IMG/VR virus record: IMGVR_UViG_3300025679_000001
Span: 1-64,000 of that record
Reading direction: 5' to 3' (one strand)
DNA from: a virus
DNA length: 64,000 bases
Part shown: positions 463 through 46,269 of the stretch, piece by piece
How positions within the stretch are numbered: position 1 is the stretch's first letter
How the letters are laid out: each line of letters starts with the position of its first letter
Program-made: the position numbers and the translations under genes
The notes under the pieces: model-generated
Database searches by the model: none
What the model was told of the DNA's origin: nothing
Seen by the model: only the letters and a program-made list of their open reading frames with translations

Positions 463-1898
463 TGCGTGTTCTCATCCTGTAGTTGGGAGTTCTGGATGGC
501 TATCCCGTAGGCGTCCTTCCAGAGGTCCAGCGTCATCACGTGCTTGTCAGGTGTCAGCACCGAGTCCCTGATCGACCCGACAATGTATCGCCCGTAGAGG
601 AAGTCGTCGTTCTCTCCCTGGTTCAAGACTGACTCGAACTTCGGGACTGCTAGGTGGACGATGTCACCGGCGTCCACCATGGTGTCGCCCGGCACTGTGA
701 TGGTCACCGCTACCTGCTCGAACGCGGTGCGCGCAGCCTGGTAGAGCCAGCCGGACTTCTTCACGACGCCGTCCTTCTCCTGGGGGTCCTTGAGCCTGAA
801 GAAGACCTGGGAAGCCTGCGTCCCAGTGAGGCCTGACGCCGGAGTAGAGTAGTTCGCGATGAACTGATCGGTGTTGGTCCTCTTTTTTCCCTGGGAGCTC
901 GTCTGAGGTCCATACTCGATAGACTGGTCGGTGTCGCCGAGGTACAGTTGGCCGTTAGCGATCTCACCGTAGTTCTGGGCGGTGACTGCCTTGTTCACTA
1001 TGCTGAACTGCACGACCTCGTTCTCCAGCATTCCCATGCGGATCTTCTGGATCGAGTCGAACCTACCGTTGATCTTGAGGGAGACAACCCTACGGATGTC
1101 CTTGCCGTTTGGCGTGTCGTCCACGTACTTGTCTGAAGCGTAGACGTACCAAGTCTCGAGCCTTTGGACGTTCGGGTCCGGGCTCGTGTCGAGCTGCTGC
1201 TGCGTGACTACACCAGCCGCCAACTGCTTGGCGTTGATCGGGTTGGTGACGAGCTCGTCGAGCATCTTGATCTGCCAGCCGTCGGCCCGCTCGAAGAAAA
1301 GGTACCAGTCTGACTTGGTGTTGTCGCCTGAGTAAGCCCTGCGAAGGAGCATGTCGATGGCTTCAAGCGGCCTGTACATCGGGACTACTAGGACCTTCAT
1401 GGGATCCTTCATGGTGAGGGTGCCCGGCGTCGACGCCTTGGTGGTCCCGAGGTAGTTCGTCTGGATGTCCTTGATGATGTCGTACACTGAGTCGGTGTTC
1501 CTGTAGCTCTTGGCCACCACCTTCTGTGAGTTGACGATGAGTTCTGGGCTGCAGAAGTGGAGTCGGTATGAAGATGACATTCCCTTCTCGTCCGGCTCCT
1601 CGTCGGAGATCTTCCAGACCCTGAACTGACCCTGCTTCGCCGAGTTGCCTGGCGTAGCGTAGGACAGGTAGAGCGTCTCCTCGCCGATGATCGGGAACCT
1701 GGTGATGAGAGCGTGGGCGTCGTAGATCAGCACGGAGCCGTACATCCCTGGCTCGAAGATGCTCGTCGACACTTGGAACTCAGTGAAGATCGCGCGACAG
1801 TCGATGTTCTGGCCGGCGTGGTTCTGCAGTGTCATCTGGTCGATCTCGACGACGTGGGCTATGCCCCTGTTGTCTGAAGTAGTGCTAGTTTCTGTCAT
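459..1898 (-). CDS. baseplate hub protein (gp27-like)
   Basis: Track ORF 459..1931 has a GTG start; ATG 1898 (MTETSTT) preferred. Lies between gp53-like and gp5-like genes. The N-terminal IFEPGMYGSVLIYDAHALITRFPIIGEETLYL and C-terminal FLYGRYIVGSIRD...MTLDLWKD patterns resemble the gp27/gpD hub family (from memory). Confidence 0.5.
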   Translation of the reverse strand: MTETSTTSDNRGIAHVVEIDQMTLQNHAGQNIDCRAIFTEFQVSTSIFEPGMYGSVLIYDAHALITRFPIIGEETLYLSYATPGNSAKQGQFRVWKISDEEPDEKGMSSSYRLHFCSPELIVNSQKVVAKSYRNTDSVYDIIKDIQTNYLGTTKASTPGTLTMKDPMKVLVVPMYRPLEAIDMLLRRAYSGDNTKSDWYLFFERADGWQIKMLDELVTNPINAKQLAAGVVTQQQLDTSPDPNVQRLETWYVYASDKYVDDTPNGKDIRRVVSLKINGRFDSIQKIRMGMLENEVVQFSIVNKAVTAQNYGEIANGQLYLGDTDQSIEYGPQTSSQGKKRTNTDQFIANYSTPASGLTGTQASQVFFRLKDPQEKDGVVKKSGWLYQAARTAFEQVAVTITVPGDTMVDAGDIVHLAVPKFESVLNQGENDDFLYGRYIVGSIRDSVLTPDKHVMTLDLWKDAYGIAIQNSQLQDENTQ

Positions 1899-3333: not shown

Positions 3334-3777
3334 ATGGCCTGGCACGGGAAGTTCAACCCACAAAACCCACAGAAGTATGCTGGGGATCCGAAGGGAATCG
3401 TGTACAGGTCGTCACTCGAGTTCAAGATGATGCGGCGGTTCGACTCGAGCCCCCACGTAGTCCTGTGGAGCTCGGAGGAGTTCATCGTCCCCTACTACGA
3501 CCCTGTCAAGAAGAAAGCTAGGCGCTACTTCCCGGACTTCGTGATAAAGTACGTAGGCGCCGACGGCACTGAACAGGTCCAGATGATCGAGGTCAAGCCC
3601 TACAAGGAGACGATAAAGCCCTCCCATAAGCCGGGGAAGCAGCGCCGGAGGATCCTCAACGAGGAGCTCACGTGGGCTAACAACCAGGCTAAGTGGGCGG
3701 CAGCCGAGGAGTACTGCAGCAGTAAGGGCTGGAAGTTCGTGAAGATCACCGAGAAGGAGATCGGCAGGACTTACTAG
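3334..3777 (+). CDS. gp4: head completion nuclease gp4-like
   Basis: 147-aa ORF. GKFNPQNPQKYAGDPKGIVYRSSLEFKMMRRFD..WSSEEFIVPYY..RRYFPDFVIKY...IEVKP is the conserved gp4 signature of T4-like phages (D..EVK nuclease core). Confidence 0.75.
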   Translation: MAWHGKFNPQNPQKYAGDPKGIVYRSSLEFKMMRRFDSSPHVVLWSSEEFIVPYYDPVKKKARRYFPDFVIKYVGADGTEQVQMIEVKPYKETIKPSHKPGKQRRRILNEELTWANNQAKWAAAEEYCSSKGWKFVKITEKEIGRTY

Positions 3778-4082
3778 TGAACCGTCGTGTTAGTGTTGGC
3801 CTTCTCTATGAACTCGATGAACTCTTTGTCGTACAGCTTGCGCCAGTCTCTCCCGAGAGTGATGGCCCTCAGGACCTCATTGTACTTGACCTTACGGTAG
3901 GAGTCCACCCACTTCTCCACATCTTCCGACGCCGATGCCGCAGTTAAAATGTCGAGCATTCTTTCTAATTCTTTGTAGGTGGCGCGATTGCACTTTAAGC
4001 CCCACATGGCCCACGCGAGGCCGAGAAGGGACACGAATATGATACAGTAACAGACGAGGTCGAAAGCATCGTTGAGAGTCAT
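3774..4082 (-). CDS. small membrane protein, unknown function
   Basis: Track ORF trimmed to ATG 4082 (MTLNDAF), which is ATGA-coupled to the upstream gene. One TM helix (LVCYCIIFVSLLGLAWAMWGL). Confidence 0.5.
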   Translation of the reverse strand: MTLNDAFDLVCYCIIFVSLLGLAWAMWGLKCNRATYKELERMLDILTAASASEDVEKWVDSYRKVKYNEVLRAITLGRDWRKLYDKEFIEFIEKANTNTTVH

Positions 4083-14869: not shown

Positions 14870-15253
14870 GAATTAGTGTCCGGCCTTCTGTTGCAAGGTC
14901 GCCGGACTAACCCCGAGAACTTAGGCCGCGAGGGCCGCGTTGCTCATGTCAACGTTGTCGTTGGCAATTATGGTTTTGATCAATTACGGAATCACCCGAC
15001 TAGTCTCCGAAACCTCTCTCTGCGCCAGTCGATCCTGTTTCGGGCCCATCAGAGATACACCGAGCTTTCGGGCAATTAACCCCTAAAGTTTCCACCAACC
15101 TCTTTCGCCCTCCCGTGCACAGGTGGAACGACCCAGTCAGCCTATCGGTAAGACCGATCCAAGCGTTTGCTCGGTCGGGTGTATCTTTGGTGGACCCGCC
15201 GAGGTACTGCCCCTCGGGTCCTGTACGCGATCGTTGTAACATCAACGACCAGT
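14870..15253 (-). ncRNA. large structured non-coding RNA / 5' leader of the gp33-gp59-gp32 operon (class unknown)
   Basis: About 385 nt between the promoter at 15260..15288 and the gp33 RBS. 13-bp long-range helix 15169..15186/15053..15065. Helix 15037..15043/15007..15013, with its loop (15027..15035) pairing to 14988..15001 (pseudoknot). Several local hairpins. Confidence 0.5.
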
Positions 15254-15259
15254 AATCCG

Positions 15260-15288
15260 TATTTATTACAGCGTGACTAGGCTGTCAA
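15260..15288 (-). promoter_or_regulatory. promoter TTGACA-N17-TAAATA (also contains the late-like AATAAATA)
   Basis: TTGACA (15288..15283) overlaps the TGA of the upstream gene. 17-nt spacer, TAAATA. The same stretch reads AATAAATA. Confidence 0.5.
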
Positions 15289-15821
15289 CCGTCGGTGCTC
15301 TTTTTTTCAGGCTCCGGCGCAACTTCTTTCTTCTGTTTCTTCACCGGCGGGGCTTCGTTGGTGACTCTGCTCGCCTCGATCTTAGCGAGGAAGGCGGCAG
15401 CTTCGTTGACCTTCGCGAGGATGGCCCTGGCTTCTTTCTCGTTGAGGAGCGTCCCGTCAGCGAACGCTGAGACCAGGCGTGTGTTGACCTCCTTCTCGTC
15501 GTAGAGGCCGATGATGTTCTTGTACTCGATCCTGATCCTGTCGCCGTTCAGCATCCCGTGCTCGTCAGTGAAGACGAGGTCGTTGGCGATGATGCAGGTC
15601 ATCGACCCGTCCGCGTCCTTCTCTTTGACGATGACCCACGGGCGCTCGGTCTTGTGCCTGGTCGTAGTGATCCCGATCTTGACGTAGTCACCCTCTACCA
15701 CTTTTTTGCGGTCCTCGAGTGAAGGCTGAGACCACGTCTCGGGATGGTCCTTAGCCATCTGGTCGCCGTCGATGAGCCCGTAAGCGTTAGTGAGTCCTCT
15801 TGAGTTTACTTTACTGACCAT
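15285..15821 (-). CDS. hypothetical protein
   Basis: 178-aa ORF with a Lys/Glu/Pro-rich C-terminal tail. No motif recognised. Confidence 0.5.
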   Translation of the reverse strand: MVSKVNSRGLTNAYGLIDGDQMAKDHPETWSQPSLEDRKKVVEGDYVKIGITTTRHKTERPWVIVKEKDADGSMTCIIANDLVFTDEHGMLNGDRIRIEYKNIIGLYDEKEVNTRLVSAFADGTLLNEKEARAILAKVNEAAAFLAKIEASRVTNEAPPVKKQKKEVAPEPEKKSTDG

Positions 15822-15822
15822 C

Positions 15823-16095
15823 TTACTTAGCCTCCACTGGAACTGCGCTGTCGACGCGGTCAGCGAAGAACGTTCGCCAATCGTTCTTCTTGATGTCGAA
15901 CGCGACGATCATGTCTGAGTTGCTGTGCCCGTCAAGGACTAACGCAGCGGCTAACGAAGCGTGGAAGTTCTTCGGGATGTTGGCCTCGCGGAGGGTGAAC
16001 TTACCCTTACGCGCCTTGCCGCTCAGCTTAGTGAAGGAGACCTTCACCGGACCGGCTCTCAGCGCGGTCCTCAGTTCTTCTGGTGTATACTTCAT
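15823..16095 (-). CDS. hypothetical protein
   Basis: 90-aa ORF, tightly packed in the operon. Confidence 0.5.
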   Translation of the reverse strand: MKYTPEELRTALRAGPVKVSFTKLSGKARKGKFTLREANIPKNFHASLAAALVLDGHSNSDMIVAFDIKKNDWRTFFADRVDSAVPVEAK

Positions 16096-16107: not shown

Positions 16108-16683
16108 TTAATTTTCAATGAAATCATCAAACTTGCGAAACTTTAACCTGCTCGGATGGTGAATGCGTCCAACTGCTTTGGCCAATATGTGTTGGGTGCG
16201 CGTGTCCGAAACATCTCCACCATTAGCCGCCAACCCCTTCCCCGCTTCTCGATGGGTCTTGCCATTCATTACAACCTCATTCAGTACTCGCTGTTCTTTT
16301 TCAGGAAGCCTTGAGATCAATTGTTTAAGCGCTGCAACATCAATCTGAAGATTAGCCGGGGCACTGATATTCCGAAGCTCATCCGCATTCATTGTTAATT
16401 CAACGGATGTTTTATTTGAACGTAAGTGTTTGATATGACTTGGCCAAAGTTCTTCGGGTTCACAATGAAGGGCCGACGAAACGTTATATGCGTGTTCTGT
16501 CCATTCTCCATTGCGTAATGGCGAACGTTTGAATGAAACAAGAGTGCCAAGATAGGATTGCTCTATCATTGCGCGTTTGGAAAGTTCTTTTAATGTCTGA
16601 ATGCCAGCCTTTTTCATAGCCTGTAGAATGCGGTTATTCTTGACCGTAATCTTGACCGCAAAATCTTTTGGTTGATCTGTCAT
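16108..16683 (-). CDS. sigma-70 region-4 / HTH domain protein (putative phage transcription factor)
   Basis: 191-aa ORF. The C-terminus LISRLPEKEQRVLNEVVMNGKTHREAGKGL....VSDTRTQHILAKAVGRI matches the sigma70 region 4.2 pattern. Does not resemble T4 gp55. Markedly lower GC than its neighbours. Confidence 0.45.
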   Translation of the reverse strand: MTDQPKDFAVKITVKNNRILQAMKKAGIQTLKELSKRAMIEQSYLGTLVSFKRSPLRNGEWTEHAYNVSSALHCEPEELWPSHIKHLRSNKTSVELTMNADELRNISAPANLQIDVAALKQLISRLPEKEQRVLNEVVMNGKTHREAGKGLAANGGDVSDTRTQHILAKAVGRIHHPSRLKFRKFDDFIEN

Positions 16684-17030: not shown

Positions 17031-17386
17031 CACTTGAACCTCATTGACTGCGCGCCTCGCTTGAACACCTTCTCCGTCCACACCGCACCAGCGGTGAAGA
17101 CCTTTCCCCCGCTATTACGGACGGTGTACGGCTTAGACTGGCGTGGGTTGTAATCGTAAAGGTGAACGGCATCAGGCCCGACGCACCTGTTAAGGTCGAG
17201 GTCCTTCTCGGAGGCTACCTTGAGGAGAGCCTCAGAGTTGAGGTCCTCATCGAAGCCGATCTGGACGTCGACTGACACTCCGCGCGGAACGAAACTGAAG
17301 TTACGCACCTTGAAGGAGTTCTCCGGGAACTCCTTTTTCAGGAGTTCCTCCAACCTCTTTCTTAACTCGGTGAATCCTCTCATCAC
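17030..17386 (-). CDS. hypothetical protein
   Basis: 118-aa ORF, coupled to both neighbours. Confidence 0.5.
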   Translation of the reverse strand: MMRGFTELRKRLEELLKKEFPENSFKVRNFSFVPRGVSVDVQIGFDEDLNSEALLKVASEKDLDLNRCVGPDAVHLYDYNPRQSKPYTVRNSGGKVFTAGAVWTEKVFKRGAQSMRFK

Positions 17387-17820
17387 ATGTTCCCAATGAG
17401 ATTAGCCATGCTCTGGGTGTCGGCGAACCTGTTGACGAGACCGACACTTTTCCAACGAGCGCCGACGTCGGCGTCGGTGCAAATGAACTCTTTTAAACCC
17501 TTCTTGATGATCCAGCACTTCTTTGGCCTTTTGTAGTTGTAACCGACGAGGGTGTAACCGTCGTTAGATGGCTTGTCAGCATTCTCGATCTTGTACTGTT
17601 TGACCATGAGAGGGAGGTTCTTGGCGTAAGGATTTATTGTCACTGTCTTGCCCGAGGTGTCTGTGGCCTTTACTCGAGCCTCTATCTTGGCCTCGAAGGA
17701 GTCGGACTGGAACCGAATGTTCCCTAAGAGAATCTGCAAGTCAGGGTGAACGATGGCGAGAGCTGCGTTGATCTTCGGGCGGAGCTCTTCGAGTGTTTTC
17801 TTGTCAATGATAAGGGTCAT
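17383..17820 (-). CDS. hypothetical protein
   Basis: Trimmed to ATG 17820 (MTLIIDKK), which is preceded by GGAGGA. Confidence 0.5.
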   Translation of the reverse strand: MTLIIDKKTLEELRPKINAALAIVHPDLQILLGNIRFQSDSFEAKIEARVKATDTSGKTVTINPYAKNLPLMVKQYKIENADKPSNDGYTLVGYNYKRPKKCWIIKKGLKEFICTDADVGARWKSVGLVNRFADTQSMANLIGNM

Positions 17821-17858
17821 GGAATCCTCCAAAAATAGTCTTGATTGACTATGTCAAC

Positions 17859-17887
17859 AGTCTACACTATAAAAAGGTCGATGTCAA
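17859..17887 (-). promoter_or_regulatory. sigma70-type promoter TTGACA-N17-TAGACT
   Basis: TTGACA at 17887..17882, a spacer ending tatagtg, then TAGACT. About 35 nt upstream of ATG 17820. Confidence 0.5.
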
Positions 17888-17892
17888 CCGTT

Positions 17893-17923
17893 AAAAAAAC
17901 ACCCCGGACGCGAGTCTGGGGTG
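17893..17923 (-). terminator. intrinsic terminator
   Basis: 10-position stem (one A.C mismatch) 17900..17909/17914..17923, a 4-nt loop, and seven U on the minus strand (17899..17893). Confidence 0.7.
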
Positions 17924-17962
17924 CTAAGTTTAGTACGGCCCGAGGGAGGCCGGTAACCGTAC
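17893..17962 (-). ncRNA. candidate ~70-nt small RNA (promoter-to-terminator unit)
   Basis: Lies downstream of the strong promoter at 17969..17997. Hairpin 1 is GUACGG..CCGUAC (17962..17933). Hairpin 2 is the terminator CACCCCAGAC-UCGC-GUCCGGGGUG plus U7. No ORF. Confidence 0.55.
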
Positions 17963-17968
17963 GTTCTC

Positions 17969-17997
17969 TATATACGACAGCGAGCATCGTGTGTCAA
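17969..17997 (-). promoter_or_regulatory. strong sigma70-type promoter TTGACA-N17-TATATA
   Basis: TTGACA at 17997..17992, an exact 17-nt spacer, and TATATA at 17974..17969. Lies in the divergent intergenic region 17833..18057. Confidence 0.65.
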
Positions 17998-18057
17998 CCG
18001 CTCATTTTTGCATCGTAGCGCAGTTTACTTCTTCGGTCGTTTTGTTTAGATAGACCA

Positions 18058-19206
18058 ATGCTGCGATCAGGTAAGAAGAGAAAACCGGCCAAGAAAGCGG
18101 CCTCAGAGATATACAGGTCGAACTACGCGGCGTACGGCGACGAGCCGGCCTACCAGCCAGGAGAAGTTCTCACTAAGCTCAAGAAGTGGGGGTCGTTCAA
18201 CTGGTACGCGTACATGGCTACCGTCGAAGATGCTAGAGAATACGTCACCTCCTACGTCAAGAGGACTGGGATGAAGGTGAACTTCTCCGAAGTCTCCGAC
18301 CGGCAGGTTCCCATGACTGCGGCGTGGCTCTGCAGGATCGACGAGCTCGGCGCCATCATCGGCCCAGACTCTCACAAGTTCATAGCGTCAGCTATTGACG
18401 GTGCAGTGAAGAGCACCGCTAAGAACACTCTGGAGAACGAGAGGTTCACCAAGAAGACGCCGAAGGTCGAGCAGGTTCTCGACCTCTTTATCTCTAACCT
18501 CGAGGAAGTCATCGACTCCGAGACGCTCGGGATGAAACACCCAAAATCAACTCCGACGAGAACGCCTTCGAACTGGAACTATAACGTCTACGAAGCGCTC
18601 AAGCTCCAGAACTTTCCGACTTCGGCCGCGTCCTCGATCTCGAAACACTACGAGCGCCTCACTCAAGAGTTGAGGCTCGCCGTCGCTGGGTCCAACGCTC
18701 AACTGAACGAAGGCTACAGCACCTACAAGAAAGCTGAGCTCCGCGCTTGGCTCGACTGGATGGAGAAGCTCGCGGCCGACTGCGAGGCCTACTCCAAGAA
18801 CACGAAGAAGCTCAGGGCGCCGACCAAGAAGAAGTCTGCACCGTCCGCCGAGAAGAAGCTCAAGAACTTCTCTTACCTGAAGGAGAGCCTCGAGTACAAG
18901 ATCGCGTCGGTGGACCCGGCCAAGATCATCGGGGCCAAGGAGGCGTACCTGTTCAACGTCAAGTACAAGACGGTCACCGTGCTCGCCGGCGACTCACTCG
19001 ACGTGAAGGGAAAGTCGATAGTGGGCTACGACGAGGCGAGGAGCTACACCAAGAGCGCTGGCAGGAAAGCCGCCGAAGTCGCCCCGTTGCTGGGACTCGG
19101 CGGTAAGGTGTCACCTAAACCCGCGCTGGAGAAGCTGACTGGACAGTCCAGGAAAGCATCGGGCAGGGTCGATGAGAACACCGTTATTCTGAAGCTGGTA
19201 ACTTAG
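18058..19206 (+). CDS. hypothetical protein
   Basis: 382-aa ORF, an isolated plus-strand gene. Lys-rich N-terminus and central linker. Its 3' end overlaps the convergent family-A gene by 23 nt. Confidence 0.5.
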   Translation: MLRSGKKRKPAKKAASEIYRSNYAAYGDEPAYQPGEVLTKLKKWGSFNWYAYMATVEDAREYVTSYVKRTGMKVNFSEVSDRQVPMTAAWLCRIDELGAIIGPDSHKFIASAIDGAVKSTAKNTLENERFTKKTPKVEQVLDLFISNLEEVIDSETLGMKHPKSTPTRTPSNWNYNVYEALKLQNFPTSAASSISKHYERLTQELRLAVAGSNAQLNEGYSTYKKAELRAWLDWMEKLAADCEAYSKNTKKLRAPTKKKSAPSAEKKLKNFSYLKESLEYKIASVDPAKIIGAKEAYLFNVKYKTVTVLAGDSLDVKGKSIVGYDEARSYTKSAGRKAAEVAPLLGLGGKVSPKPALEKLTGQSRKASGRVDENTVILKLVT

Positions 19207-19564
19207 CGTACAACCATTTCTTGTCGAGTGGAATCTGTCCTCTGAGCACCGCGACTGCTCGATCTCTAGCTTCTTTTCCTACGCCGACACTGTTGTCAAA
19301 ACCGTAAGGGCGAAAGAGATCGTAAGCCTCATCCTTAGTAAGTCCCAGGGTTTCCATTCCGAAATTAAAGAAATTGCCTTTGGAGACATCGCCGTAAGCG
19401 ATAGCACACCACCCGGCAACGCATGCAGCAGTGTTACAATCGTTACTAACAGCAACACTAGATGCACAGTACCATTTTGGTATATTCGTCCATGCGCTCA
19501 TGTCAAACTTACCTGCACAGGTCTCGATGTAGGTCGCCAGGTCGCACATCTTCTTAGTGTCCAT
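19184..19564 (-). CDS. family-A small Cys-motif protein (paralogue 1 of 5)
   Basis: 126 aa. MDTKKMCDLATYIE...NDCNTAACVAGW...LGLTKDEAYDLFRP...RDRAVAVLRGQIPLDKKWL. The motifs are shared with 19580, 38261, 54745 and 61078. Confidence 0.6.
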   Translation of the reverse strand: MDTKKMCDLATYIETCAGKFDMSAWTNIPKWYCASSVAVSNDCNTAACVAGWCAIAYGDVSKGNFFNFGMETLGLTKDEAYDLFRPYGFDNSVGVGKEARDRAVAVLRGQIPLDKKWLYAKLPASE

Positions 19565-19579: not shown

Positions 19580-19963
19580 TTATTCTGAAGCTGGTAGCTT
19601 AGCGCTGAGCCAGTTCTCGTCGAGTGGAATCTGTCCTCTGAGCACCATCACTGCACGGTCACGAGCTTCTTTTCCTAAACCGATACTCGTCTTATATCCG
19701 TCGGGGGTAAAGAGGGCGAAAGCTTCTTCCTCAGTAAGTCCCAGGGTGATCCTTCCAAACGAAAAGAACTCGAACACGCCTAATTGTTTGCCGTGAGCGA
19801 GAGCGCACCACCCGGCGACGCAGGCAGCGGTGTTGCAGTCGTTACCAACAGCCTCAATAGATTCAAGGTTGGCATCTTTGTGACTTATCCAATTGCTCAT
19901 GTCAAACTTACCGGCGCGGGTCTCGATATAGGTAGCAAGGTCGCACATCTTCTTAGTGTCCAT
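19580..19963 (-). CDS. family-A small Cys-motif protein (paralogue 2, tandem copy)
   Basis: 127 aa. The N- and C-terminal ~20 residues are almost identical to paralogue 1. GGAG RBS. Confidence 0.6.
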   Translation of the reverse strand: MDTKKMCDLATYIETRAGKFDMSNWISHKDANLESIEAVGNDCNTAACVAGWCALAHGKQLGVFEFFSFGRITLGLTEEEAFALFTPDGYKTSIGLGKEARDRAVMVLRGQIPLDENWLSAKLPASE

Positions 19964-22562: not shown

Positions 22563-22808
22563 TTAACTTTTAGATCTTGAACTATCCACCTGCCGCAGAA
22601 AGCCGTCATAACGTTTCGGAGTAAGTTCCAGTGCCCCCTCTGGGTATATCTGTACGCTGCCGACCTCTTTTTCGGACTCGACGCAGTAGCCAAAGTGCGT
22701 CAGGCTCGAACTGTAAAAGCCAACGATTCTTCCCGTCCAAGAAGATCCTTTAATCTTGTTGACTCGCTGGCCGAGCCGGAACTTTCCGTTGTGCACGATC
22801 TCGCTCAC
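22563..22808 (-). CDS. dfrB: type B (R67/DfrB-like) dihydrofolate reductase
   Basis: 81 aa from GTG 22808 (GTGA-coupled). FRLGQRVNKIKGSSWTGRIVGFYSSSLTHFGYCVESEKEVGSVQIYPEGALE versus R67 [52 protein letters not shown]. The catalytic VQIYP is conserved. Confidence 0.75.
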   Translation of the reverse strand: MSEIVHNGKFRLGQRVNKIKGSSWTGRIVGFYSSSLTHFGYCVESEKEVGSVQIYPEGALELTPKRYDGFLRQVDSSRSKS

Positions 22809-23599
22809 TGATTCTGATTCTCCATGAAGTCGACGAACCCGAGGAACTCCTTCCACAGGAACTCCTCTCGTTCTGCGCTGAACATGTAGTCGGCGTGCTT
22901 CTTGGCCACAGTCCAATAGGACTCGTACCGCGAGGTCGTCACCATGTCCATCATCTCCATCAGGGAGCTCGCGAAAGCTACGCCGTAGGCGGTGTTGTCG
23001 ATCGAGTGCTGTGAGGAGAAGCCGTGGGAGCCCATCATCTCTAAGAACCCCGAGTGCCTGGGCGTTAGGACTAGGCAGCCGGCGCTCATCGCCGTCGCCA
23101 CCTCAGCGTTGAAGGACTCGAACGACATGGCCGGGTGGGCGAAGACGTTGGCGCTCTTCATCTCTGCTATGAGCTCTTCTCGAGAGGGAGAGACCCGCAC
23201 CTTCGTAGTGTTCTTGTCGACTAGGTTCATGGCGATAGGGCCGGGGTCGGACGAGCAGCAGGCGACCAATGAGAATTTATTCCCGTACTTGATGGCGATC
23301 CCGTTGACGATCGAGAGGAGCATAGTTAGCGTACCGTCGTTCGGGTCTCCGGCCCAGATTAGCCTCGGCCTGTCCGAGGGCTTGACGTCAACTTCGATCC
23401 TCTGGACAGAGGGTGAAATGATCGACCTGTACTTGGCCTGAACGTAGTACAGGTGCCGCTGTTGCCATGAGGTCGTGGTTACCATTGAGAAGACTGACCC
23501 ACCGAACTTTTCAGTGTTCCAGCGGCGGTCGATGGCCCACACCGTTCCCTTGGCCGCGGCTTCGTACTCTGTAGTTATGTCGGTGCTCTGTATCTTCAT
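22805..23599 (-). CDS. glycosyltransferase (GT-B, GT1/GT4-like)
   Basis: 264-aa ORF. REELIAEMKSANVFAHPAMSFESFNAEVATAMSAGCLVL is the GT-B C-terminal E..(7)E-type motif. Confidence 0.5.
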   Translation of the reverse strand: MKIQSTDITTEYEAAAKGTVWAIDRRWNTEKFGGSVFSMVTTTSWQQRHLYYVQAKYRSIISPSVQRIEVDVKPSDRPRLIWAGDPNDGTLTMLLSIVNGIAIKYGNKFSLVACCSSDPGPIAMNLVDKNTTKVRVSPSREELIAEMKSANVFAHPAMSFESFNAEVATAMSAGCLVLTPRHSGFLEMMGSHGFSSQHSIDNTAYGVAFASSLMEMMDMVTTSRYESYWTVAKKHADYMFSAEREEFLWKEFLGFVDFMENQNQ

Positions 23600-23616
23600 G
23601 ATTAACCTAAAAAAGT

Positions 23617-23964
23617 TTAGTTGGAGCTAGGAGGCGCGCCCTCTTTAGAAGGCAATCCTATAGCTTTAACCTGCGGTATGTTTAACACACAAGCCTCGTT
23701 GGTGTCAACCGTCTTGAACAAGACTTTTGCGTCACTGTCTGTCAAGAACACTATGACGGTGATTCCGTTCTGGCTGGAGACCAGGAGAGGTACCCATCCT
23801 AGGTCCTTGTACGTCTGGTCGGTAAAGTTCGGGTAGCAAGTGACTGGGGTTTTAAGGAGCTTCATCTTCGGGGCAGGTCCTGGAACCTTAGGGATGAGCC
23901 CGTCAGCTAGGGCGAAGGGTGACGCGCACAGCGAGAGGACGAGGAAGGCGACGAGTCGTTTCAT
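23617..23964 (-). CDS. secreted protein, unknown function
   Basis: 115-aa ORF with the signal peptide MKRLVAFLVLSLCASPFALA. Confidence 0.5.
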   Translation of the reverse strand: MKRLVAFLVLSLCASPFALADGLIPKVPGPAPKMKLLKTPVTCYPNFTDQTYKDLGWVPLLVSSQNGITVIVFLTDSDAKVLFKTVDTNEACVLNIPQVKAIGLPSKEGAPPSSN

Positions 23965-37808: not shown

Positions 37809-38280
37809 CTTTCACCTCCATCAGTTGCTTAGCTAGTCTCGAGCACTCGCGCACCACGTACGGGACGTCCTTGTAGATCCCGAACTCTAGGATCCCACGC
37901 GGTATGCCAATCTTAGCGTCCGTCGCCCTCATCCCGGGAGACATGTCGTTCAGGTGAGCGCAGTCGAACCCGAGCCACCAGACTAGGTCGTCCTCGCCCT
38001 CCTCGACGAGGTGACAGATCCCATGCTCGTCTTCAGCACAGGTGTCCGCGAACGTTAGGCCGCCGTGAACAGTGACGTCGCAGTCGTTGTAGCCCTTCTT
38101 AAAGAACGGGTGATCTTTGGACACGCCGACGTAACCGCACAGGCTGCCGAGGGTGTTTCTCACTATGAGGCACGGCATACCCGTCGCGTTGTCGACGTAC
38201 TGGATCTTGTCAGGCTCGGCCTGCCATGGGCCCGGGCCCCACGAAGACTTGTCGTGCGTCTTATACTCTATTCTCTTCAT
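37765..38280 (-). CDS. conserved-looking hypothetical protein
   Basis: 171-aa ORF with the motifs GPGPWQAEPD, LCGYVGV, VHGGLTF and LGFDCAHLND. Confidence 0.5.
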   Translation of the reverse strand: MKRIEYKTHDKSSWGPGPWQAEPDKIQYVDNATGMPCLIVRNTLGSLCGYVGVSKDHPFFKKGYNDCDVTVHGGLTFADTCAEDEHGICHLVEEGEDDLVWWLGFDCAHLNDMSPGMRATDAKIGIPRGILEFGIYKDVPYVVRECSRLAKQLMEVKDERKTQEDSISRSG

Positions 38281-38641
38281 TCTGGACTCTCGGTTGAGGG
38301 TTACGCAACCAGTCTATCGTCAACGCAATCTCTCCGCGAAGGACTCCCATCATCCTGGTGCGCTGAGTTTCTTGGTCTAACTCGTCATGAATTCCGATAG
38401 GCGAAAAGAGGTAATTGGCTCTTTTTTCGGTCAGGCTGAGCGATCTTGTAGCATACAGTACAACACTGTCAATGTCGGGCGCGTCATAACGTTCTTTAAT
38501 AACCAACCACCCTGCAATGCAGCACGCAGTACCGCACTCTCCGCTTGAGCTAACAGTTATCTGGTGTGGTTGAAAGGTTGACATGTCTACGAGCTTGTCC
38601 TCGATATAGGTAGCCAACTCGCACATCTTCTTGGTGTCCAT
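38261..38641 (-). CDS. family-A small Cys-motif protein (paralogue 3)
   Basis: 126 aa. MDTKKMCELATYIE...ECGTACCIAGW...LSLTEKRANYLFSP...RTRMMGVLRGEIALTIDWL. Confidence 0.6.
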   Translation of the reverse strand: MDTKKMCELATYIEDKLVDMSTFQPHQITVSSSGECGTACCIAGWLVIKERYDAPDIDSVVLYATRSLSLTEKRANYLFSPIGIHDELDQETQRTRMMGVLRGEIALTIDWLRNPQPRVQNEENRV

Positions 38642-38867
38642 GACGAAGTCTCCTAGTTAAAAATCGGTAGGAGGGCGGTCATGCTCGCACACTTCGAACA
38701 CTACCCCTCCCAGCCGTCGCTCCTCCCCTGTGGTCCCAGGGGTGTCTCGAAGTGCTAGGTACGTCGGCCCAGGGTGTGTGTCGGTCTTAACTTGGAGGAA
38801 ACGACCGTCCCAGGGAACTATACCATCTCTAAATCAGCGTTAGCGGGAGCAAACGATAATGTACTAT

Positions 38868-38896
38868 GATCTATACCGCATCCCTGTCGGTGTCAA
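38868..38896 (-). promoter_or_regulatory. sigma70-type promoter TTGACA-N17-TAGATC
   Basis: TTGACA at 38896..38891. Followed by a ~220-nt leader before ATG 38641. Confidence 0.45.
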
Positions 38897-38899
38897 CTG

Positions 38900-44431: not shown

Positions 44432-45052
44432 TCATTCTTCCTTCCACGGTGCGTCGCCGGAACTCGGGATGTTCTTCGGCCTAAACTTCTTGCCTAGGAC
44501 GCGCTCCCTGTCGTCGTAGTTGTCTATGAGCTCCAGCCTGTTCACGATTATGTTGAGCGCCACGGGGGCAAAATTGTTAACGTCGGCGCCGACGTTGATA
44601 GCTCGTCCCGGGATCTCGAACTTCCCATCAGGGCCCTCGAAGACGTTGTGAACGTGCCCGTACACGTGATAGGAGTTACGGTGGAAGCCATGCCACTCTA
44701 GGATCGGATAGTGATACATGTGAAAGTGTAGGCCGTGAACTTTGGTGATGAGCTCAGGATAGCACCCGGCCCACGGCAGCCTCTTGATCTTCGCGTCGTC
44801 GTGATTGCCGTGAATCAGGAACTTCTTGCCGTTGAGCGCCCTGAAGTAGAGTGACGGGTCCTTGGCCGCACGAAAAGAGAAGTCTCCGACGTGGTAGACC
44901 GTGTCGTTAGGCTTGACTCTCTTGTTCCAGTTCTCGATCAGGACCTCGTCCATCTCCTCGACGCTGGCGAAGGGGCGCTTCGAGTGCGCTATGATCTTCT
45001 CGTGCCCGAGATGGGTGTCGCTGGTGAAGTATACGCTGTCTGTGTTGCTCAT
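44432..45052 (-). CDS. calcineurin-like metallophosphoesterase
   Basis: 206-aa ORF. FTSDTHLGH, VGDF, HGNHD and YGHVHN are the full metallophosphoesterase motif set. Confidence 0.8.
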   Translation of the reverse strand: MSNTDSVYFTSDTHLGHEKIIAHSKRPFASVEEMDEVLIENWNKRVKPNDTVYHVGDFSFRAAKDPSLYFRALNGKKFLIHGNHDDAKIKRLPWAGCYPELITKVHGLHFHMYHYPILEWHGFHRNSYHVYGHVHNVFEGPDGKFEIPGRAINVGADVNNFAPVALNIIVNRLELIDNYDDRERVLGKKFRPKNIPSSGDAPWKEE

Positions 45053-46269
45053 GCTGCCTTCCTATCGCTTTTGATGACGCCGACCTCGGAGTGCGTGCTC
45101 TCTGGCGATCGGCCGATCGAGATGGTCTTGAAAAAGTGCGTACAGTCTGCATCCTCTACGAGCTTGGTGACACCGGCGAGGTCTGGAGTATATACGTCAC
45201 GAGTGTGCTTGTTGTTGACGAACTGGATTGCGTCGAGCTGGTCGCAGCAGGTCACGATGAGGTTCGACCTGGCGTTGCCGCTCGGACCGATAGGAAGCGA
45301 CGTTATAATGTCATGGTCGATTCTCTTGAAGACGGAGTGGTCGAGATGGCCAGTACGAAAGCCGCCCTGCCACTCGTTGTGAACGTTAGTCTCGTCCTTG
45401 AAGCGAGGAATGTACGTTGACCTCTCAAGATCACTGAGGTGTTCATGAGCGAGGGGCCCTTTGCCGTGGCGGGTCACGTATGCTCTGGTGACGTAGAACC
45501 ACTCACACTTGACCTTTGGACTAAGGCCAAACAGACCAGCCTTGTACACGTTGTGACCTCCAGTTCTCGACCTGGTCACGTGAGGCATGATTCCAGTCAC
45601 CTCGTCGAGACCGAGACCCTGCCCGGATTCGTAGATGACGCGCTTCGGGTCCCCGACGGCGCTCATGTCTATCTTCAGGCCCTCGATGATAGAGTCCGTC
45701 GACAGGAAGCTCAGGTCCGTCGGCCATACTGGTGCGTCCATGAACTTCTCGATCTCCTCTTTGGAGACGACGCCTATTAAAGCGAGACGCTTCTTATAGT
45801 AAGCTTTGATATTGTTAGAGTCAGCTCCACTGCCGATCTGAGCGTAGCGGGTAACGCACTCGTTGATCCCGTGCCCGCAAGAACCGTGACGGTTGGCACC
45901 GCGGGCCGTCTCGATCAACTGGTTCGCGATCATGTCGAGATTCGAGACGATCTTAGCGTGCTTGTGAACGTACACCTTGGGGGTGAAGCCGAACGTTTTC
46001 TCGAACGCCTCGATCTCCTTCTGGAGGAGGACCGGGTTGACGCAAAATGTGTGGTCGAGAACGGTAGCAGCACCTTTAGGAGCGCCGGAGCCGAGCTGGT
46101 TGAACACCACCCTAGAACCGTTGGTCTCGACGGTGTGCCCGGCCTGTGCTCCACCGTTGTGCTTAACGACGACGGTGTCCGAGTCAGAGAGCAGGTGTGT
46201 AGTTCGACCCTTTCCCTCGTCCCCGTAGTTGGCGCCGATGACGGCGAACACTTCCTCTAAAGCTGCCAT
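45049..46269 (-). CDS. adenylosuccinate synthetase family protein (divergent PurA-like; PurZ-type function not excluded)
   Basis: 406-aa ORF. P-loop GANYGDEGKGR, GGAQAGHT, TRHGKGPLAHE, GGFRTGHLD and TCCDQLD parallel PurA motifs. PurA GTTGRGIGPAY is replaced by HGSCGHGINEC. Confidence 0.7.
   Translation of the reverse strand: MAALEEVFAVIGANYGDEGKGRTTHLLSDSDTVVVKHNGGAQAGHTVETNGSRVVFNQLGSGAPKGAATVLDHTFCVNPVLLQKEIEAFEKTFGFTPKVYVHKHAKIVSNLDMIANQLIETARGANRHGSCGHGINECVTRYAQIGSGADSNNIKAYYKKRLALIGVVSKEEIEKFMDAPVWPTDLSFLSTDSIIEGLKIDMSAVGDPKRVIYESGQGLGLDEVTGIMPHVTRSRTGGHNVYKAGLFGLSPKVKCEWFYVTRAYVTRHGKGPLAHEHLSDLERSTYIPRFKDETNVHNEWQGGFRTGHLDHSVFKRIDHDIITSLPIGPSGNARSNLIVTCCDQLDAIQFVNNKHTRDVYTPDLAGVTKLVEDADCTHFFKTISIGRSPESTHSEVGVIKSDRKAA

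Follow-up and report, generated by a model that had tools for sequence, protein, structure and literature searches.

The alphaR8 family of small RNAs (sRNAs), which includes MmgR of Sinorhizobium meliloti and SisA-D of Caulobacter crescentus and is represented in Rfam by RF00519 ('suhB/mmgR'), has two defining features, a Rho-independent terminator and an internal single-stranded 10-mer, UUUCCUCCCU, positioned downstream from a weak hairpin (PMC12559287). Its members depend on Hfq, and one of them, SisA, pairs through its CU-rich core at the ribosome-binding site (RBS) of a TonB-dependent receptor mRNA and so represses it; the sponge CrfA pairs with that same core (PMC12559287). The primary copy adjoins the FGase gene, paralogues elsewhere are known, and the first direct targets of the family were described only in 2025 (PMC12559287). 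MmgR limits the accumulation of polyhydroxybutyrate (PHB). Here we examine a stretch of viral DNA (IMG/VR record IMGVR_UViG_3300025679_000001, positions 1 to 64,000; called the window, whose numbering is used throughout) that carries a short non-coding unit, read 5′ to 3′ on the minus strand from 17998 to 17893. The unit lies in the divergent intergenic region 17821..18057, between gene 17383..17820 (minus) and gene 18058..19206 (plus). Its sequence suggests, with a confidence that we place somewhat above an even chance, an independent early phage sRNA gene that is the positional orthologue of alphaR8-like units in two sister phages. These are L015 (IMG/VR 3300031949_000049) and L018 (Logan SRR19787804_7506, 180 kb), which are the closest relatives by the neighbouring 382-aa gene (45% and 46% identity, respectively).

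The predicted RNA resembles alphaR8 sRNAs in its length of roughly 70-80 nt, in its own promoter, 5′ hairpin, linker and Rho-independent terminator, and in the presence of CCUCCCU and, just before the terminator, of CUA(A/G)ACUU. It differs in that CCUCCC occupies the loop of a strong rather than a weak hairpin and a single-stranded UUUCCUCCCU is absent. Furthermore, the unit resides under an early promoter in a large, apparently virulent phage, and not beside the chromosomal FGase gene.

Two other sRNA families, alphar14 (NfeR1) and alphar15 (AbcR1/2) of alpha-rhizobia, work through CU-rich anti-Shine-Dalgarno (aSD) motifs in their loops, which pair with translation-initiation regions in an Hfq-dependent manner (PMC7143759). 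The likeness to the window RNA lies in the placement of such motifs in hairpin loops or unpaired regions, whereas these sRNAs are 110-125 nt long and have three hairpins with two or three aSD motifs. No Rfam match to either family was obtained in a scan of the locus or of the whole window.

DicF, IpeX and StxS are regulatory sRNAs encoded by phages or prophages. AsxR and AgvB are anti-sRNAs of enterohaemorrhagic Escherichia coli (EHEC) prophages (cited in PMC12559287). All five are short, terminator-ended and phage-encoded and are expected to act on host RNAs via Hfq, as would the RNA described here, but they come from temperate enterobacterial phages, and AsxR and AgvB act as sponges complementary to host sRNAs. 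In sense, the window unit and the sister units agree with a host sRNA family and would therefore be mimics rather than sponges. Phage-encoded regulatory RNAs are known mostly from such temperate phages; here, a large and apparently virulent clade seems to encode, downstream of an early promoter, an RNA that shares its type with a host sRNA family which is both core and widely conserved.

Anatomy of the unit

The unit and its immediate downstream neighbourhood contain the following features.

17998..17992, minus: −35 element of promoter P1, GTTGACA (TTGACA at 17997..17992), seen in the sequence; a member of the promoter family described below, with TTGACA invariant in the alignment of the window, L015 and L018
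17967..17975, minus: −10 region of P1, GTATATAGA, with TATATA at 17974..17969; seen in the sequence, with a 17-nt spacer from TTGACA counted by hand
17962..17933, minus: 5′ hairpin (hairpin 1), 30 nt, beginning six bases after the −10 region; predicted with RNAfold
17932..17924, minus: single-stranded linker, UAAACUUAG, or UAAACUU(AG), 7-9 nt; from sequence and fold
17923..17893, minus: intrinsic terminator, a 24-nt stem-loop at 17923..17900 (−14.1 kcal/mol) followed by U7 at 17899..17893; from fold and scan
17859..17888, minus: promoter P2 of the downstream operon, GTTGACA at 17888..17882, 17 nt, then TAGACT at 17864..17859; 10/12 in the promoter scan and a member of the same family
17845..17857, no strand: perfect palindrome TTGACATAGTCAA, TTGAC-ATA-GTCAA, around the predicted +1 of P2
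17383..17820, minus: first gene of the leftward early operon, encoding 145 aa of no known family; RBS GGAGGAUUCC at 17830..17821, ATG at 17820

P1 can be laid out as GTTGACA, a 16-nt spacer and GTATATAG (17975..17968), which amounts to TTGACA-17-TATATA, or alternatively as GTTGAC-17-GTATAT. The equivalents of its −10 element are TATATA in L015 and TATGCT in L018, and the position of the element places the predicted transcription start at about 17962-17964. The 5′ hairpin that would begin there consists of an outer stem (GUACGGU/GCCGUAC), a UA bulge, an inner stem (CCGG/UCGG) and the hexaloop CCUCCC at 17949..17944. The terminator stem-loop, CACCCC-A-GAC/UCGC/GUC-C-GGGGUG, has nine pairs and one A·C mismatch, and P2 begins 5 nt past the end of U7.

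The 70-nt RNA is predicted to fold into exactly two hairpins (−31 kcal/mol, z = −3.8), and its minimum free energy (MFE) structure is identical to the centroid, with no competing or antiterminator fold evident. The predicted transcript contains no open reading frame (ORF) that has an RBS; a 41-aa minus-strand ORF begins at 17987, upstream of the predicted start. An alternative fold, a leader peptide and the lack of a promoter between terminator and gene, which would mark an attenuator or leader, are all missing from the unit. An earlier note, made from the sequence of the window alone, had described a TTGACA-17-TATATA promoter, a GUACGG...CCGUAC hairpin, a linker, a terminator with a 10-position stem and U7, an enclosed sequence devoid of ORFs and a second promoter right after the terminator, and each of these elements is indeed present on the minus strand. 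With a promoter, no ORF, a terminator and a separate promoter for the next gene, the unit appears, as far as sequence can tell, to have the generic properties of an sRNA gene.

P1 belongs to a promoter family that is strikingly strand-biased in the window. The minus strand contains 16 copies of GTTGACA and the plus strand a single one, and the extended motif GTTGACA-N16-[GAT]TA occurs at 12 minus-strand sites (54741, 52782, 44277, 38897, 33340, 22000, 17998, 17888, 15289, 11608, 6794 and 5002) and at none on the plus strand, against 0.1 per strand expected from second-order Markov simulations, with a maximum of 1 in 200 runs. Members of this family, many of which read ..TAGTGTA.. at −10, precede genes. 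Both P1 and P2 are among them, and the site at 15289 precedes the permuted transfer-messenger RNA (tmRNA) of the phage. P1 is thus a credible promoter of what looks like the early type of the phage itself. The earlier claim that it is the best sigma70-like promoter in the window does not hold, as P1 has 10/12 matches to the E. coli consensus, equal to P2, and is one of 12 family sites; it is absent from the promoter-scan list because it lacks a T at −7.

The terminator has no such company. Both strands of the 64 kb were scanned for runs of at least five T preceded by a compact hairpin, and 17923..17893 ranks first and is the sole clean combination of compact hairpin and U-run. The other nine candidates are loose multi-loop structures, mostly within genes, which leaves canonical terminators as a rarity in this part of the phage genome.

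Several minor features accompany these promoters. The palindrome at 17845..17857, which may be an operator, also creates a third GTTGACA motif without a −10 element. The family promoter at 38897 is followed by a leader of about 225 nt (38642..38899, minus) before gene 38641..38261. This leader contains a hairpin loop, UUUCCUCCAAGUUAA, with 8/10 of the alphaR8 10-mer and a long GGGAGGGG/CCCUCC hairpin with U5 immediately before the RBS, and its overall fold is not significant (z = −0.2). The 5′ untranslated region of gene 23599..22805 (about 23600..23680, minus), served by a promoter at 23709 that sits inside ORF 23617..23964, holds GAGGGCGCGCCUCCUAGCUCCAACUAAACUUUUUU and shares CCUCCUAG and CUAAACUU with the sRNA.

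The syntenic slot in sister phages and the relation to alphaR8

The same gene order is found in the window, L015 and L018: tmRNA, a WYL_2 gene, a gene of 118 aa (33% identity, E 1e-12), variable small ORFs, the divergent intergenic region that forms the sRNA slot, and the 382-aa gene. In L015 and L018, this intergenic region contains a TTGACA −35 element with a −10 element, a 5′ hairpin, a single-stranded linker, a GC-rich terminator with U6-7 and a further operon promoter. The promoter-hairpin-terminator architecture, whose conservation in related phages the earlier note had proposed to examine, is thus kept at the syntenic site. The terminator stems are wholly different among the three phages; the hairpin and U6-7 are kept. 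Flanking sequences are orthologous in all three, including an ATGCAAA block, the TTGACA of P1, the U-run and a 14-nt translation-initiation block, GGAGGATTCCATGA (window 17817..17830, minus), which is invariant in intergenic regions that can hardly be aligned in their other parts. The ORF that comes first after the unit is non-homologous between the window and L018, and that of L015 looks unrelated by eye.

The sister units closely approach alphaR8 itself. RF00519 is their clear best Rfam match, with 37.8 bits (E 3.2e-6) for the unit of L015 and 35.5 bits (E 9.4e-6) for that of L018, both just under the gathering cut-off of 41 bits, and they carry the core CCUCCCUAGACUU, which is identical to the RF00519 consensus. 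The matches to the family-defining 10-mer in the three phages are as follows.

L018 unit: 9/10 of UUUCCUCCCU, single-stranded
L015 unit: 8/10 of UUUCCUCCCU, single-stranded
Window unit: 7/10 of UUUCCUCCCU (CCUCCCU only), in and around the apical hexaloop of the strong hairpin

If transcribed, the three variants, with the seed at 9/10, at 8/10 and relocated, would form a natural series for the study of sRNA seed evolution under phage selection.

The window RNA retains the Rho-independent terminator of the alphaR8 definition, and its linker is reduced to UAAACUU. Together with the preceding C, the linker reads CUAAACUU, versus CUAGACUU in alphaR8, and CUAAACUUAG, that is CUAAACUU(A)G, stands in the same register before the terminator as CUAGACUUGG in the sister units. 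Variants in which CCUCCCU-N-CUAAACUU is followed by a terminator occur elsewhere (L210 and L195). By its place in the gene order, the window unit is evidently the positional orthologue of the alphaR8-like sister units. The orthologous flanks, the shared architecture and the two short motifs make common descent with these units fairly probable in our judgement, with a confidence that falls well short of certainty. A covariance model of our own, built from 46 alphaR8-like units, was dropped after it yielded 0 base pairs because MAFFT had misaligned the variable terminators.

Beyond these three lineages the architecture is absent. L019 has an intergenic region of 130 bp without a unit, and the L001-L013 clade has only a short hairpin with T9. 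In the cultured distant relatives Cr30, RHph_I1_18 and phiM12, the neighbouring gene lies within a co-directional operon and no comparable intergenic region is present. A metagenome scan with an alignment of five proteins of the neighbouring gene recovered 15 loci, with no new sRNA slot besides the L015 contig itself. Downstream of its alphaR8-like unit, L015 also has a second unit (about 3650..3790, minus) that consists of the promoter TTGACT-17-TAGGAT, a CU-rich UUCUCCUAUCCCCC and a hairpin, GGGCCCGCAGG..CCUGCGGGCCC, without a U-run, followed by a third promoter.

Proposed action and competing explanations

In the mechanism that we favour, host sigma-70-type RNA polymerase would start at P1, a promoter of the phage early type, and produce a non-coding transcript of about 70 nt that ends at the strong intrinsic terminator with U7. 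The stable hairpin formed at +1 would protect the RNA, and the operon behind the unit would be served by its own promoter, P2. A terminator with a U7 tail that follows an A/U-rich linker is the usual Hfq-binding module, and Hfq could assist the RNA in trans through this part. The window gene would be a diverged descendant of an alphaR8-like unit in which the single-stranded UUUCCUCCCU core was lost and CCUCCC came to be displayed in the apical hexaloop. This CU-rich aSD loop would pair with G-rich RBSs, mainly of host mRNAs and early in infection, and thereby repress translation. Anti-Shine-Dalgarno pairing with the CCUCCC hexaloop as the seed is the likely mode of action by analogy with alphaR8, alphar14 and alphar15, and the same analogy makes the linker UAAACUUAG, which the earlier note had put forward as the seed, a less likely choice. 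If the RNA is expressed in this manner, it would be a case of a phage that reprograms host translation with a host-type sRNA.

Several results weigh against this interpretation. RF00519 is the top-ranked Rfam family for the window RNA, but its score in a 451-nt scan is 16.4 bits (E 0.69), below the cut-off and just 0.5 bit over that of an unrelated terminator-bearing sRNA family; most of the score therefore stems from the terminator. RF00519 is not listed in the whole-window Rfam E-value scan, and nhmmer searches that used either the L015 and L018 units or an alphaR8 profile of 77 sequences returned no match at 17893..17962 even at E ≤ 100. Because of the low score and of these two negative searches, membership of the window RNA in RF00519 is not demonstrable by the family's own criteria, among which the single-stranded 10-mer UUUCCUCCCU is lacking. 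A 6-nt loop alone yields only 5-6 base pairs, and the slot was found in only three lineages. Within the window, neither duplex energies compared with shuffles nor k-mer complementarity exceeded what chance would give, and no target emerged there.

The absence of a trans target in the window, along with the position of the unit directly upstream of the operon and in the same orientation, would also fit an element that acts only in cis. P1 with a leaky terminator would then be an extra attenuated promoter or an insulator for the early operon 17820..~15285, and the short RNA a by-product without function in trans. Tandem promoters are common in early phage regions. However, the family promoter P2 comes straight after the terminator, and P1 is therefore not needed for the operon. 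The terminator is also the strongest in the 64 kb, the MFE structure equals the centroid with no antiterminator pairing or leader peptide evident, and the sister phages hold a bona fide trans-acting sRNA type in the slot. We consider a purely cis-acting role unlikely on these grounds. Indeed, the promoter family, the sole terminator, P2 and the proximity of the sister units to RF00519 all point to an independent promoter-to-terminator sRNA gene, as the earlier note had proposed, rather than to an operon leader.

A genuine trans-acting sRNA might nonetheless be unrelated to alphaR8, if the slot was refilled or the gene arose de novo and the linker UAAACUUAG, the sole fully unpaired stretch outside the loop, is its seed. 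The failure of nhmmer to detect primary-sequence homology and an RF00519 score barely over those of other terminator-bearing sRNA models would be explained in this way. Yet the ATGCAAA block, the TTGACA of P1, the U-run and GGAGGATTCCATGA mark the flanks as orthologous, CUAAACUU(A)G is in register with CUAGACUUGG of the sister units, CCUCCCU is kept, and a 7-nt A/U-rich seed would be weak. An origin apart from alphaR8 accordingly strikes us as rather improbable. The loss of the family-defining seed could instead indicate a decaying relic of an alphaR8-like gene, whose remaining role, if any, would be to stop minus-strand read-through before P2, for example antisense transcription from the RtcB operon across the 382-aa gene. 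Minus-strand genes upstream of the unit do stop at 19184, and no terminator separates them from it. The outer stem GUACGGU/GCCGUAC seems to have been gained, not lost, and the unit still has an intact and strong promoter, 5′ hairpin and terminator, a pattern that is not that of decay; we regard a relic as very unlikely. Least credible, to the point that we give it hardly any weight, is a PeSL-type cassette (an early promoter with a stem-loop, as in T4-type phages) that promotes recombinational shuffling of early genes and has no RNA function. It would account for a stem-loop that adjoins early promoters and for a first ORF that differs among the three phages next to an invariant 14-nt junction, GGAGGATTCCATGA. 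PeSL cassettes are repeated many times per genome, and those of T4-type phages are reportedly the subject of a 2010 study by Arbiol et al. The intergenic region, in contrast, has no second copy in the 64-kb window by BLAST, and no comparable hairpin with a U-run occurs elsewhere in it.

Descent from an alphaR8-like gene, with action in trans through the hexaloop, remains the interpretation that we favour, and it can be extended to a broader and much more tentative scenario, which we hold to be possible but doubtful. The phage clade may have captured a host alphaR8 riboregulator and placed it under an immediate-early promoter, and so would take over the host Hfq-dependent regulon for carbon and nutrient uptake (TonB-dependent receptors and PHB metabolism). 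The window phage would represent a next step, in which the seed was removed, the anti-Shine-Dalgarno motif was moved to a stable loop and the mimic was retargeted, possibly in escape from a CrfA-type sponge. The comparison also allows an intergenic region that would otherwise stay blank to be annotated in concrete terms, and it is a motive to seek alphaR8-like genes in phage genomes.

Viral alphaR8 copies elsewhere and the phage itself

Sequences of the alphaR8 type are frequent in other viral records. The motif CCTCCCTAGACTT(N0-3)GG has matches in at least 120 IMG/VR contigs (L021-L140), and at least 77 distinct alphaR8-type units with a terminator, mostly with canonical SL1, are present in IMG/VR. 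RF00519 passes its cut-off in 4 of the tested loci, with 50-69 bits (L034, L025, L058 and L157, the last from Microcystis phage Mwe-JY08, whose GenBank entry annotates a hypothetical coding sequence over the alphaR8 unit). Five GenBank phage matches were found, none annotated as RNA: PP395640.1 (L157 2495..2578), OP596613.1, OP596612.1, KY940711.1 and OM681334.1. Many of these viral units are probably att-site copies of temperate phages that integrate into the host sRNA gene, because the alphaR8 unit abuts an integrase gene in L025 and L047. Such copies share with the units of the window clade the presence of alphaR8 sequence within viral contigs or phages. They differ in that the units of the window clade appear to be driven by an early-type promoter rather than to result from integration into a host sRNA gene, and no integrase was found among the genes examined around the unit of the window. 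A literature search returned no paper that ties MmgR or alphaR8 to phage-encoded copies, although it did not include the primary family papers (Lagares 2016, 2017), where an earlier mention is possible. In one 57-kb viral contig (L050), a CyVA-1 RNA (RF02965, 53.2 bits; 975..1051, plus) lies about 400 nt from an alphaR8-like unit.

Proteins encoded in the window match phage families, including ribonucleotide reductase, primase, tail proteins, tape measure, RtcB and a Lon-like protease. The 382-aa neighbour of the unit (18058..19206, plus) has distant homologues, at about 25% identity, in Caulobacter phage Cr30, Sinorhizobium phages phiM12, phiM7 and phiN3 and Rhizobium phage RHph_I1_18; we take Cr30 and phiM12 to be T4-like phages. 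A permuted two-piece tmRNA of the alpha type, behind the family promoter at 15289, occupies 14877..15292 on the minus strand (RF01849, 101.5 bits; RF04321, 94.9 bits) and is also kept in L015, L018 and the L001-L013 clade. Because of this tmRNA and of the protein relatives in Caulobacter, Sinorhizobium and Rhizobium phages, we conclude that the genome probably belongs to a large phage of an alphaproteobacterium, a distant relative of the T4-like phages of that group. The locus recurs in identical form on contigs of 175.8 kb and 115 kb from two samples. No DNA similarity to GenBank phages was detected in near or distant search modes, the 145-aa protein had no match by tblastn or in an IMG/VR scan, and GTDB genomes scanned with the window-type RNA pattern and with the protein alignment gave 0 matches, so that neither host nor donor was identified by these scans.

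The same intergenic region holds one further promoter.

18024..18052, plus: promoter of the divergently transcribed 382-aa gene, TTTACT-17-TAGATA, placed back to back with P1; seen in the sequence

The mRNA of the 382-aa gene appears leaderless in the window, as the ATG at 18058 comes 5 nt after the end of TAGATA and lacks a Shine-Dalgarno (SD) sequence, whereas L015 and L018 have a leader with an SD sequence at this place. A GAAGTAAAC block by the divergent promoter is conserved in L015, L018 and L019.

Among the genes of the early operon, 15823..16095 (minus) codes for a WYL_2 protein that has an Sm-like SH3 beta-barrel (PF10902) and is kept in all relatives, and 16108..16683 (minus) encodes a 191-aa protein with weak similarity to sigma-70 region 4 or a helix-turn-helix; the presence of an Sm-like protein beside an sRNA gene could be relevant. 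Three paralogous genes of about 126 aa (MDTKKMC.LATYIE..., phrog_889) lie at 19184..19564, 19580..19963 and 38261..38641, all on the minus strand, and two of them are in tandem and overlap the 3′ end of the 382-aa gene. Finally, a 406-aa protein (45049..46269, minus) matches phrog_1211, '2-aminooxy adenylosuccinate synthetase' (E 4e-53); it presumably resembles PurZ/PurA-type enzymes, and may hint at DNA with a modified purine (2-aminoadenine).

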